Positions 2,503 through 15,992 of a stretch of DNA of 27,732 nt are shown here, piece by piece. The notes beneath the pieces are model-generated. The model searched no databases. It had not been told where the DNA came from and saw only the letters and a list, made by a program, of their open reading frames with translations. The position numbers were made by a program, and so were the translations under genes. The number at the start of each line of letters is the position of its first letter. The stretch's first letter is position 1. The stretch is from the IMG/VR virus record IMGVR_UViG_3300037067_026584, positions 62,001 to 89,732 of that record; one strand, written 5' to 3'. The stretch is from an uncultured virus (IMG/VR IMGVR_UViG_3300037067_026584) (lineage: Duplodnaviria; Heunggongvirae; Uroviricota; Caudoviricetes).

Positions 2503-2536
2503 GATTTTCCTCGTGCCCTGTTATATGGGGGCACAG

Positions 2537-2707
2537 TGCTGTCGAACGGATTCGAACCGTTGTTTTCGCCGTTGGCGTAAGGGGGTAATATGGGTATAAC
2601 AGGATGACATCGAGGACTTTATAATCCCGGCAAATGCAGAAAACCGAGAGTATTTTATTTAGTGTGCAATCGCACGGCGATGATTTTCCAGTCTAATCTA
2701 CGACAGC
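2537..2707 (-). tRNA. tRNA or tRNA-like gene with 98-nt insertion in the anticodon loop; isotype uncertain (Arg-GCG if intron at 37/38)
   Basis: Minus strand: acceptor GCTGTCG/CGACAGC-A73, U8A9, D-arm GATT-AGACTGGAA-AATC, anticodon stem TCGCC/GGCGA, variable AAAC, T-arm AACGG-TTCGAAT-CCGTT. 105 nt lie between the anticodon-stem strands. No encoded CCA. Confidence 0.8.
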
Positions 2708-10310: not shown

Positions 10311-10580
10311 TCACGATCTTACTGCGAGCTCGTACTTCTCAAGCATCGCGTCCAGCTTGCGCTCAAAATCGTCCGCTTTCAAACGAGCATTCGTATTCCC
10401 GCCATCGATACTATTAAGATGCTTCCCTGTCGTTGCACCCCAGTAGTTTTCGGAAACAACCTTCCCATAGCCCGGGCTGTAAAACGCTACGCACGTTTTA
10501 TAGGAGAACCAGAGGACAAGCTTCCCGATGGTAACCCTGCTCAAATTATGTACAGAAATGTCTATTTCAACTGTCTGCAT
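10311..10580 (-). CDS. conserved viral hypothetical protein (FSYKT.VA...YWGATTGKHLN); first gene of the early operon
   Basis: 89 aa. The SY.T.(I/V)A...TT.KH motif recurs in phage small proteins (recall). Confidence 0.8.
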   Translation of the reverse strand: MQTVEIDISVHNLSRVTIGKLVLWFSYKTCVAFYSPGYGKVVSENYWGATTGKHLNSIDGGNTNARLKADDFERKLDAMLEKYELAVRS

Positions 10581-10595
10581 TGTTATACCGTCCTT

Positions 10596-11157
10596 CCCTC
10601 ACGCTGAGGGTATACCTTACCCCGGATTTGACCCGGTGACAGCAATAACGAAGATAGTTCCCGCTATCCTATCGGGTAAGGCAATTCAGAATTCTCAACC
10701 AGTGCGCAAAGCCCCGGCACTGTATCGGGGGGAGTTGATCCGGCAGGATGAGTTGCAGCAGTTTTCTCTCTTCACGTGCTCGTACCGCGTCCCGTGACAT
10801 TACTACATCAGATATGGATCGTCTCTTTATCGTCATGTGGCTAAAGTGCCGTGTGCTTGACGCTTGGAGCTCTCATCTCCCATATCATCCGGTTGTGTCC
10901 CGGGGATACGCTCACGATCAATTCATGAGGTTGCCGCTACTCCTGTACGACAGGAATAGCATTCTCGACAACGTTCCTGATCCGTGCTTTTCCGCTCAGT
11001 CGTACAAGGGAAGGGAGTTGTGAATCCATGCAAAGCAACATGGTACCCTTTTGTTCCATCATCCCGCAAAGGCGGGAACCTGTACCCATTAAGCCGCTAT
11101 CTTATTTCCCGGATCCCCCGGTTTTTTCTCGGTCTACTGGTTTGCACCTTCTGATGA
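10596..11157 (-). ncRNA. candidate ~550-nt structured non-coding RNA or long 5' leader
   Basis: No minus-strand ORF >=60 aa. Lies directly downstream of a BRE-TATA promoter. Contains several hairpins, an H-type pseudoknot and a tRNA-like fold. Confidence 0.5.
10613..10683 (-). ncRNA. 71-nt tRNA-like element lacking an anticodon arm
   Basis: Acceptor-like TGCCTTACC/GGTAAGGTA, D-like AGGATAG-CGGGAA-CTATCTT, T-like CCGG-GTCAAAT-CCGG. Confidence 0.55.
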
Positions 11158-11178
11158 TCCTTATGTAGGATCCCTGAG

Positions 11179-11209
11179 ATAATAAAGATTTCGCTTAATG
11201 AATATTAAG
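11179..11209 (-). promoter_or_regulatory. archaeal BRE-TATA promoter with an upstream palindrome
   Basis: Minus strand GCGAAAT-CTTTATTAT. Palindrome CTTAAT-N4-ATTAAG at 11194-11209. A second palindrome GATCCT-N5-AGGATC at 11156-11172 covers the expected TSS. Confidence 0.65.
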
Positions 11210-11259
11210 GGAACCCTACGCAGAAATCTATGCGGACATACAATTTAACGTTTTTTCAG

Positions 11260-11400
11260 TCGATTGCCACGGAAAGGGCCCCGGCAGCCCGCCGGGAGGC
11301 ACGATCCGGGAGACCGGCAACCCGGAAATATACCCGGAGTGCCCCGGGGAGCGCACATTAAAAGAGCATTCCAGAAAACCGGACGGGATCCGGCAATCGA
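11260..11400. repeat. CCGG-rich segment bounded by a 9-bp inverted repeat
   Basis: TCGATTGCC (11260-11268) and GGCAATCGA (11392-11400) flank a stretch with nine CCGG tetramers. Confidence 0.5.
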
Positions 11401-11530
11401 TCACGGATCCTGACCATATCAGTACGAAACTGCATTTTTACAAAGGCCCAAAACAGGGGTTCTTTCACTTTCCAAGTATAAACATACGATCAGGTACGAG
11501 ATCTGGGCTAGAAACCAGCCTGGCATCGAT

Positions 11531-11740
11531 CTATCGCATAATATCGACACCAAGAACCCATAGAACAATGTAAACCACCAGGATTCCCGCTGCCAAAAGC
11601 CACATCGTTCTGCTGGCCCTCTCAAGAAACAATACTGGGGTCCTGGGGGATACCGCTACGATCGCGTACCGGATCCCTACGAAAACACATCCAATAAAAA
11701 ATAGTCCAAAAATTATAGCTATGATCAAATTGTAGAACAT
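11531..11740 (-). CDS. small two-TM membrane protein
   Basis: 69 aa with two hydrophobic segments. Follows 11750..12145 closely. Confidence 0.65.
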   Translation of the reverse strand: MFYNLIIAIIFGLFFIGCVFVGIRYAIVAVSPRTPVLFLERASRTMWLLAAGILVVYIVLWVLGVDIMR

Positions 11741-11749
11741 AGAACCAGG

Positions 11750-12145
11750 TCACTCTCTTCGGGCCCGGTCCCTGCTCTGCTTTCTCTCTTCCATCCTCTT
11801 GACAAGCCTGTCTTCAAGATCATCCTGATATTTTTCAAGCTCGTCAATCATGCGGTTTACCGTTTCAGACTCTGAAATGGCCTTTTGAGCCACAGTCCGC
11901 ATATCTTCGATCGCTTCGCGGACCCTGGTTATTTCAGCATCGATCTCGTTCGCCACATCTGCGGCCCGATCGTCATCCTCTTCGGTCCGAATGGAATCGA
12001 GCCGATTAGAAAGATCCACCAGGATGTACGACTTGACATCGGTTGCTTTGTTCTTCAGGTCTTCAAACACCTTTGACAGATCTTCCAGACGATCTTCGAT
12101 TACTTTTCCGACTATTTTTGAAACAATCGACATTCTTTTCACCAT
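11750..12145 (-). CDS. coiled-coil protein
   Basis: 131 aa, charged helical heptad-like pattern. Confidence 0.75.
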   Translation of the reverse strand: MVKRMSIVSKIVGKVIEDRLEDLSKVFEDLKNKATDVKSYILVDLSNRLDSIRTEEDDDRAADVANEIDAEITRVREAIEDMRTVAQKAISESETVNRMIDELEKYQDDLEDRLVKRMEERKQSRDRARRE

Positions 12146-14813: not shown

Positions 14814-15713
14814 TCAAATCACCCCGTTTTTGATCATGTAATGGTTATTCACCAGTGCTTCTTTCACGATCGGAGCAAAGCGTGTCCAGTCAGTGTACAC
14901 GTCACTCATCGATGTATCCGTATGCCCCAGCACAGCGCGAATCGTTATATCGGGCACGTTCAGCAATCGCATTTCAGTCTGAAAGGTCCTCCGGGCGGTT
15001 CTCGATGTGACTGCAACTCCCGAAATTACTCGAGCTTTTCCAACTTGAATCTTGAGATTTTTGGTAAGCCACCCGCCCGGATACGGCAGCCCCGCATCCC
15101 CCTTCTCGCGCACGAATTCATACCACGTCTTCATGTATGGGTCAATGACCGGACTCCATGCCAAGTATCGTTCAACCAGCGTCTTCTCAGTGAGAATGAG
15201 CATTTCACGCTTCTGCAAAGACACCTTGGCAGTTGCCAGATATTTCGATATCTCGCCCGGCCGGGCCCCGAAGTAGAAAAGAACTACAAACCCCGAAATC
15301 AGCTCGTCAGTCGCCCCGCTATCCCTCAGCATTTTGAAAAACTTTGAAAGATCGGCAGAGGTCAAAGCAATTTTCGTGAGATACTTTCGCTTTCGTTTCG
15401 GCCGAATCAACGCCAGCTGATTGTATCGCTGCATCTCGTCATTCACCCTGGGATCCCCAACTGGTAAAGATGTGTACCTGTACTTAAAATATTCACGAAT
15501 CGCCGAAAGAACTGTGCTTTGCGACTCGATTGTTGATATGTACTCATCCACGATGCTGGTTGTTGCCTCCCGTATCGTAATGTGTTTCTTATCCCGAAGC
15601 CACCGCTGAAACGATATCAACAAAAAACCGTACGTCTCGGCTGCCTGCACTTTCCCGGTCAATTTCAAGTGCTCGATAAAATCGTCAGTAGGTAATTCAA
15701 ATCCTTCTACCAT
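14814..15713 (-). CDS. tyrosine recombinase / integrase (XerA/Int family)
   Basis: GARPGEI (catalytic R), TEKT (K), SRTARRTF (RxxR in place of HxxR), LGH, DVY (Y). N-terminal core-binding-like domain. 299 aa. Confidence 0.9.
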   Translation of the reverse strand: MVEGFELPTDDFIEHLKLTGKVQAAETYGFLLISFQRWLRDKKHITIREATTSIVDEYISTIESQSTVLSAIREYFKYRYTSLPVGDPRVNDEMQRYNQLALIRPKRKRKYLTKIALTSADLSKFFKMLRDSGATDELISGFVVLFYFGARPGEISKYLATAKVSLQKREMLILTEKTLVERYLAWSPVIDPYMKTWYEFVREKGDAGLPYPGGWLTKNLKIQVGKARVISGVAVTSRTARRTFQTEMRLLNVPDITIRAVLGHTDTSMSDVYTDWTRFAPIVKEALVNNHYMIKNGVI

Positions 15714-15756
15714 GTCACTTTTCTATGAAGTGTCACAGCAATAAAAGTTTTCTTTT
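15713..15756 (-). promoter_or_regulatory. probably leaderless promoter of the recombinase, with an operator-like inverted repeat
   Basis: Minus strand AGAAAA-CTTTTATT ~27 nt upstream of the ATG. TGTCACTT-N7-AAGTGTCA (15713-15735) overlaps the expected TSS. Confidence 0.55.
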
Positions 15757-15920
15757 CTGCATAATTAAGAGAAATTTCTTGCAAAAAGAAAGATCGTGCA
15801 CCCGGGGAAAAGAGCCGTCTTTCTATCCCTGGGGCACTCGGGGAAATCCATTTGGCTATGGGATTGGTTGGACGATTTTTAGAACAACTGAATCATTCCG
15901 TCTTACGTGTCTTCTGAACC

Positions 15921-15947
15921 GTGTTGTGTGCGGATCTCACACAACAC
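15921..15947. other. perfect 10-7-10 inverted repeat; candidate recombinase core site
   Basis: GTGTTGTGTG-CGGATCT-CACACAACAC, ~200 bp upstream of the recombinase gene. Confidence 0.45.
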
Positions 15948-15992
15948 ATCTTAATTGTCAATTATAAAAATAAAGTTTCCCATTGCGGAAAA

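Follow-up and report, generated by a model that had tools for sequence, protein, structure and literature searches.

The window, by which we mean the whole stretch of 27,732 nt that was analysed, comes from a virus record of 89,732 bp that has direct terminal repeats of 127 bp. It takes up the final 27.7 kb of this record, and landfill and groundwater DNA runs contain it. All supported genes in the window lie on the minus strand. Judged by the kinship of its PolB, by its TATA-like boxes and ribosome-binding motifs and by an intron-bearing tRNA gene, the virus is of an archaeal type: the nearest cultured viruses to its family-B DNA polymerase are haloarchaeal tailed viruses (31-34% identity), and TATA-like boxes along with GGAGG, GAGGA or GGUGA ribosome-binding motifs stand 5' of many window genes. 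The locus studied here is a 71-nt tRNA-derived element, which ends 32 nt 5' of the ATG (10580) of a DUF8033 gene. Its parts and surroundings are listed below in the order of transcription.

10581..11530, minus strand: gap of 950 nt without a supported gene in the ORF list; the 71-nt element is its final domain
10613..10683, minus strand: tRNA-derived element of 71 nt (from sequence and fold), made of a closing stem, a long hairpin and a T-like hairpin
10675..10683, minus strand: 5' strand of the closing stem, acceptor-like, positions -1, 1-7 and 8 in tRNA numbering; pairs with 10613-10621 with one G.U, probability 1.00
10664..10673, minus strand: tandem 5-nt duplication GAUAG-GAUAG in the former D region (from sequence)
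10638..10673, minus strand: irregular 15-bp hairpin with five G.U pairs and apical loop AACU, in the place of the D and anticodon arms (in both the MFE and the centroid structure)
10622..10641, minus strand: block UGUCACCGG-G-UCAAAUCCGG over the variable loop and T arm; the T arm is that of a genuine tRNA, with G for U at position 54
10613..10621, minus strand: 3' strand of the closing stem, with A10613 in the place of the discriminator (from sequence, fold and pair probability)
10596..10610, minus strand: 6-bp hairpin CCCUCA-GCG-UGAGGG, beginning 2 nt past the 3' end of the element (from sequence)
10591..10595, minus strand: Shine-Dalgarno-like AAGGA, with the ATG 10 nt further on (from sequence)
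10311..10580, minus strand: downstream gene of 89 aa, DUF8033 (PF26096) / phrog_5643 by family matches

The 950-nt gap lies in an otherwise compact genome. It has several repeats centred on GGATCC, and TATA-like boxes stand near 11210-11175. Pfam and PHROG support was found for none of its nine small ORFs. A 55-aa ORF at 10669-10836 (minus strand), overlapping the 5' part of the element, was considered and is unlikely to be a gene; no protein family supports it, and its TAG stop reads CAG in a strain variant of the virus found in run X7, so the change at 10671 argues against it. No Rfam family was detected in the gap, where only weak matches at chance level were returned (sR12, E 0.3; aceE-II, E 1.4). 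Scans of the gap for bacterial-type promoters and terminators gave results at chance level, the repeat search of the gap was uninformative, and the phage and E. coli collections held no match to the region. Folded as a whole the gap has a z of -3.28. The X7 variant is 98% identical (42 of 2001 positions differ), and of its changes that fall in predicted pairs of the gap fold six keep the pair and four break it, hence the global fold is unsupported. One part of the gap, 11279-11349 on the minus strand, has 75% G+C and the third most stable 71-nt fold genome-wide (-39.6 kcal/mol), and 37 nt of it are matched by one contig of another organism in run X9. A long leader, a non-coding RNA of a new kind and a decayed region are all conceivable readings of the gap.

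The element itself folds well on the strand of the genes. The minus-strand sequence reaches an MFE of -30.8 kcal/mol (z -4.11), and none of 200 shuffles was as stable, while the plus strand reaches only -21.4 kcal/mol (z -2.38); this difference fits a structure at the RNA level on the coding strand. It should be noted that 238 of the 59,774 overlapping 71-nt windows of the genome reach -30.8 kcal/mol or lower, so that the fold is stable and not unique. When the whole 950-nt gap was folded, the element remained a separate domain.

The original prediction described a 9-bp closing stem with one G.U pair, contiguous with a 4-bp stem carrying the loop GUCAAAU, and these pairs are indeed present on the minus strand. 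The 4-bp stem is CCGG/CCGG, formed by 10636-10633 with 10625-10622. The same drawing placed a 7-bp D-like stem at 10670-10664 with 10657-10651, with the loop CGGGAA and 14 nt left unpaired. Such a stem can be drawn, but the ensemble gives its pairs a probability of 0.000, and the fold as drawn reaches -21.9 kcal/mol against -30.8 for the MFE. The favoured fold consists of a 10-bp closing stem, the 15-bp irregular hairpin (10673-10638) and the T-like hairpin. Its pair probabilities are 1.00 for the closing stem, 0.98 for the T-like stem and 0.89-0.98 for the long hairpin. In the 9/4 drawing the T stem has C48-G62 as its fourth pair, with a probability of 0.31; the rival C10-G62, which is the tenth pair of the closing stem, has 0.69. 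As the favoured fold has no D loop, no elbow between a D loop and a T loop is predicted from it. A three-way junction of the hammerhead or purine-riboswitch type was also considered and rejected; the junction strands measure 0, 2 and 0 nt and no such Rfam family matched.

The X7 variant bears on the choice between the two drawings. It differs from the window at two of the 71 positions of the element, 10671 and 10651, and both changes are U to C on the RNA strand, each of them replacing a G.U pair in the long hairpin by G-C. With these substitutions the fold of the element shifts from -30.8 to -35.7 kcal/mol, while the fold with the D-like stem weakens to -21.1 kcal/mol. We estimate the chance probability of both changes being G.U to G-C at roughly 0.01-0.1, depending on the null. 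The substitutions are thus modest evidence for the long hairpin over the D-like stem. They do not demonstrate purifying selection on the element, since its two changes in 71 nt are in proportion no fewer than the 42 in 2001 around it.

The 9/4 arrangement had further been likened to tRNA-Sec. A 9-bp plus 4-bp stack can be drawn on the element as on tRNA-Sec, but the element lacks the anticodon arm, the UCA anticodon and the long variable arm, and the tRNA-Sec model RF01852 does not match it; the sole genome match of that model (13.4 bits) lies at genome position 46900-46980. The bare 9/4 geometry is in addition common by chance, with nine sites in the genome where 20 dinucleotide shuffles average 4.55. 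When the loop is required to read N-U-Y-R-A-N-N, one site is left in the genome, the element, against a shuffle mean of 0.15. The comparison with tRNA-Sec is supported neither by the model search nor by the bare geometry. In tRNA numbering the 9 bp are an ordinary 7-bp acceptor stem plus a pair between -1 and 73 and a pair between 8 and 65. The last is possible because the element has G at position 65, where the tRNA genes matching its T-arm block have T.

On sequence grounds the element is derived from a tRNA, because, apart from position 54, its 20-nt block of variable loop and T arm is identical to the T arms of real tRNAs. The pattern UGUCACCGG-N-UCAAAUCCGG, with N at position 54, was searched in one genome each of 185,579 species (genome_contigs) and gave 69 matches, where by our arithmetic about 4 matches to the block, with its 19 specified bases, are expected by chance. 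As many as 56 of the 69 lie within tRNA genes called by ARAGORN (Met 33, Phe 18, five others), four of these 56 in archaeal genomes. The letter at N is T in 62 of the 69 matches; all seven matches with another letter fall outside called tRNAs, and these include the only two with G. The loci L168, L172, L175 and L196 (Plectonema and Hassallia contigs) hold tRNA-Phe 3' halves without a 5' half, several of them at contig ends. These cyanobacterial pieces resemble att-site or repeat copies of part of a tRNA.

Alignment to viral tRNAs points in the same direction as the block. Against the tRNA at G001:109123-109195 of a related virus the element scores 47 (z 3.4), a value reached by 4 of 500 shuffles; on this scale pairs of real tRNAs lie at 30-58. 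This tRNA is the best of six distinct tRNA sequences aligned, and z is between -1.4 and 0.9 for the other five. Real tRNA genes number six and one, respectively, in two viruses whose PolB is 59% identical. In the G001 virus (L142 / G001:C1:105553-109195) five tRNA genes stand within 3.7 kb near one contig end, and one of these genes, 95 nt long, carries an insertion.

The acceptor stem of the element is fully paired over 7 bp, GCCUUAC with GUAAGGU (G1.U72), followed by A. The variable loop is normal, and the T stem has four of five pairs. The T arm carries G54 and an A.G mismatch at 49-65. G at position 54 breaks the U54-A58 pair of the standard T loop and should weaken that loop. Between the remnant of the D region and the variable loop there are about 10 nt, against the 18 nt needed for position 26 and the anticodon arm, and an anticodon arm with a 5-bp stem and a 7-nt loop is absent from every predicted fold of the element. 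Having lost this arm the element cannot decode. The original description of a tRNA-shaped top half without an anticodon arm thus holds, and the block matches inside called tRNA genes give its T arm a real tRNA descent. The Rfam tRNA model RF00005 (gathering score 29 bits) had no match at E 10 or better in the whole genome, in 10400-11800 or in 10600-10700. ARAGORN with default settings called 0 tRNA genes, and it called the element only at the 80% threshold, among 73 noise hits.

The second tRNA body of the window, which had been taken together with the element as a hint of a tRNA-mimic system, proved to be a tRNA gene.

2536..2707, minus strand: tRNA gene with a 98-nt intron and the canonical T arm ACGG-UUCGAAU-CCGU (ARAGORN with introns allowed, and sequence)
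2513..2534, minus strand: 6-bp hairpin GUGCCC...GGGCAC, beginning 2 nt past the tRNA discriminator, with GAGGA directly after it and then the ATG at 2502 (from sequence)

By ARAGORN this gene is Trp(CCA), its intron lying ahead of the anticodon; with an intron at the canonical 37/38 site it would be Arg(GCG). The anticodon stem is intact. The gene escapes both ARAGORN at default settings and the tRNA model of Rfam, and no clean bulge-helix-bulge motif was found in the folds of the intron. An intron-bearing tRNA is ordinary for archaea, and this one is no part of a mimic system. Nor is there a second copy of the element to make up such a system: a covariance model of the element found no other copy in the genome, in two relatives or in 78 further loci.

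The tRNA gene is informative in another way, as the element and the tRNA share their downstream layout: in both, a 6-bp hairpin begins exactly 2 nt past the discriminator A, and a Shine-Dalgarno-like motif and then the ATG come after it. In the flanks of two tRNAs of the relative G001 a hairpin likewise follows 2-4 nt past the 3' end. The shared layout is only suggestive, since hairpins of at least 6 bp occur within 45 nt 5' of the start at 15 of 127 ORFs. Still, the placement of the element would make sense for a processing signal, a real tRNA having the same layout downstream. Upstream the two differ. An A/T-rich TATA-like stretch stands 5' of the tRNA at 2536-2707 and none stands 5' of the element. 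As it has no TATA-like box of its own, unlike the real tRNA, the element is probably transcribed within a longer RNA.

Homologues for assessing covariation of the stems were sought in viral contigs, in the two relatives and at the loci of the DUF8033 and neighbour proteins, and none were found. A search of viral contigs with an exact 24-mer gave 0 matches. The DUF8033 gene has 256 relatives among viral contigs, many of them with a longer N-terminus that holds a YGNYSSxNYGAH-like motif, which the short form at 10311-10580 does not have. As a single query the DUF8033 protein gave no close relative. A metagenome scan with its relative P0002 (66% identity) gave three loci at 53-56% identity, and P0002's own 17-kb contig was not among the matches. 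The regions 5' of DUF8033 relatives at 80 loci held no similar RNA; short blastn matches at DUF8033 loci fall within the longer N-termini of the homologues. Among the neighbours, the 131-aa protein has no relative and the 225-aa protein has relatives at 38% identity or less. Neither of the two viruses with 59% PolB identity has the DUF8033 gene or the gap, and the window proteins had no match in the sampled parts of these viruses.

Starting from the descent from a tRNA, the stable stems and the placement of the element, we tentatively suggest that it is a truncated viral tRNA which still serves as a processing site in the manner of t-elements, and give this reading a probability of about 0.4. 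A viral tRNA gene would have lost about 8 nt of its anticodon arm, with the paired acceptor stem and the T arm kept, and the 5-nt duplication would have merged the D region and the remnant of the anticodon arm into one long hairpin. The element would be transcribed as part of the long DUF8033 leader. RNase P and tRNase Z of the host may then recognise the stack of acceptor stem and T arm as they do in t-elements, and tRNase Z would cut after A10613 and free the upstream RNA. The remaining mRNA would begin with a protective hairpin 2 nt from its 5' end, followed by the ribosome-binding site. Against this reading stand G54, the lack of an Rfam tRNA or tRNA-Sec match at E 10, the missing D loop and a conservation no better than that of the surroundings.

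Several known systems bear on this suggestion. Catalogued tRNA mimics, among them mascRNA/menRNA and YrlA, gave no Rfam family match to the element at E 10. In the TMERs of murine gammaherpesvirus 68 (vtRNA-hairpin units) a tRNA-like part is processed by RNase P and/or tRNase Z and hairpins come after it. MascRNA of MALAT1 is a tRNA-like module that RNase P and/or tRNase Z processing separates from its neighbouring RNA, according to an excerpt of the source (PMC8457004). Both of these systems are eukaryotic, unlike the viral element, for which processing is putative. The t-elements themselves are described in an excerpted report as substrates of RNase P and tRNase Z, with the t-element 5' of the Haloferax volcanii 5S rRNA being cut by tRNase Z (PMC4326828), and those of plant mitochondria, in the excerpt available, stand directly 5' of mature mRNA 5' ends (PMC1920247). 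As far as these descriptions go, the viral element resembles them in being a non-decoding tRNA-like fold with an acceptor stem and a T arm, in a longer transcript and directly 5' of a functional RNA, and its 3' end would likewise set the 5' end of the downstream RNA. It differs from them by its place in a virus, by G54 and by the long rod-like hairpin that stands where a tRNA has its D and anticodon arms, and cleavage is putative here. With the tRNA genes of archaeal tailed viruses, that at 2536-2707 included, the element shares the acceptor stem, the variable loop, the T-arm sequence, the operon slot and the succession of 2 nt, hairpin and ribosome-binding site; unlike them it has no anticodon arm and no match to a tRNA covariance model. 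Within the incomplete and partly excerpted literature surveyed on tRNA-like elements in archaeal viruses, we found the attP of halovirus HF2 and ordinary viral tRNAs, and no use like that of a t-element.

Nearly as likely as the processing site is an inert relic, that is, a recently inactivated viral tRNA pseudogene decaying in a long non-coding stretch, where any processing would be a leftover and not selected; taken by itself this is possible, though we consider it somewhat doubtful. The evidence for tRNA descent serves a relic equally well. One deletion, one duplication and two substitutions suffice to lead from a tRNA to the element, so that a young pseudogene, too, should still have its acceptor stem intact. 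The defects are those that kill a tRNA (the lost anticodon arm, G54 and the A.G mismatch at 49-65), the density of substitutions is not reduced (2 in 71 versus 42 in 2001), the location is a 950-nt gap without a supported gene, and the element is a singleton without homologues. Three points speak against decay and none of them is strong: both natural substitutions strengthen the new hairpin and not random pairs, the closing stem is perfectly paired over 9-10 bp, and the downstream layout is the same as that of a functional tRNA. A structure of the leader or 5'-UTR that works without tRNA enzymes, for instance as a stabiliser or translational switch for the DUF8033 gene, would make the tRNA descent irrelevant. 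The position 32 nt 5' of the ATG and the independent domain in the fold of the whole gap are consistent with it, and by its sequence the 5' strand CCUUACCC could pair alternatively with GGGAAGG at the ribosome-binding site. We find such a structure unlikely nevertheless, as nothing similar stands 5' of the DUF8033 relatives at the 80 loci, the covariance model built on the element gave no hit in the 78 loci, and no riboswitch or leader family of Rfam matched.

Other uses of a tRNA piece by a virus fit the locus less well. According to an excerpt of PMC8707807, a low-scoring tRNA-like gene beside the integrase of halovirus HF2 (HrrHF2_450) is read as attP, and host tRNAs match its last 57 nt; following that proposal, the tRNA-like piece here would be an attachment site at which a tyrosine integrase recombines with a host tRNA gene. 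The virus does have a tyrosine recombinase gene at 14814-15713 on the minus strand, with a weak XerA-like match (31 bits), and like the HF2 sequence, in the part of the source available, the element is a low-scoring and unconventionally folding tRNA-like sequence in an archaeal tailed virus with an integrase (PMC8707807). The HF2 sequence as excerpted there adjoins its integrase and matches host tRNAs exactly over the last 57 nt, whereas the viral element lies 4.1 kb from the integrase gene with at least eight ORFs between and has no genome match. Its T arm plus 3' acceptor strand, CCGGNTCAAATCCGGGGTAAGG, gave 0 exact matches in one genome each of 185,579 species, a sample outside which the host may lie, and a host tRNA rebuilt from the 3' part of the element would carry G54 and the 49-65 mismatch. 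The 280-nt gap that adjoins the integrase gene was searched for a tRNA fragment and held none. We hold an attP to be quite improbable. The same gap (15714-15992) contains an inverted repeat GTGTTGTGTG...CACACAACAC and a TATA-like box.

A last alternative, also put forward in the original prediction, is a decoy of tRNA-targeting defences, in which the released RNA would occupy host proteins that bind tRNA, for instance anticodon nucleases, modification enzymes or defence sensors. The one point in its favour is the shape, that of the top half of a tRNA in which there is no anticodon to be cut. The genome neighbourhood gave it no footing: a PADLOC scan of 22 neighbouring proteins recognised no defence or anti-defence gene, 21 being without a match and one giving a weak match to a ZorA-like coiled coil. 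The element has no promoter of its own. The elbow is the feature read by most tRNA-binding proteins, and G54 weakens it. We regard a decoy as very improbable, the least probable of the readings considered.

Further, we speculate, on a footing that we consider improbable as a whole, that archaeal viruses may repeatedly turn their own tRNA genes into non-decoding top-half RNAs that are excised by RNase P and tRNase Z and CCA-tailed. The released RNA of about 70 nt would then have a separate function, such as occupying defence or modification proteins that bind tRNA, its excision would punctuate the viral mRNA, and the element would be one independent instance.

If the element is a relic only, it would be a dated snapshot of the decay of a viral tRNA gene and mainly a warning to annotators, as tRNA finders miss both the element and the intron-bearing tRNA 8 kb away. 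If, on the other hand, host tRNA enzymes cut the element at the putative processing site, archaeal viruses would use tRNA punctuation of their messages, which is so far documented for organelles and one Haloferax rRNA operon, and a dead tRNA gene could be kept for its shape alone.
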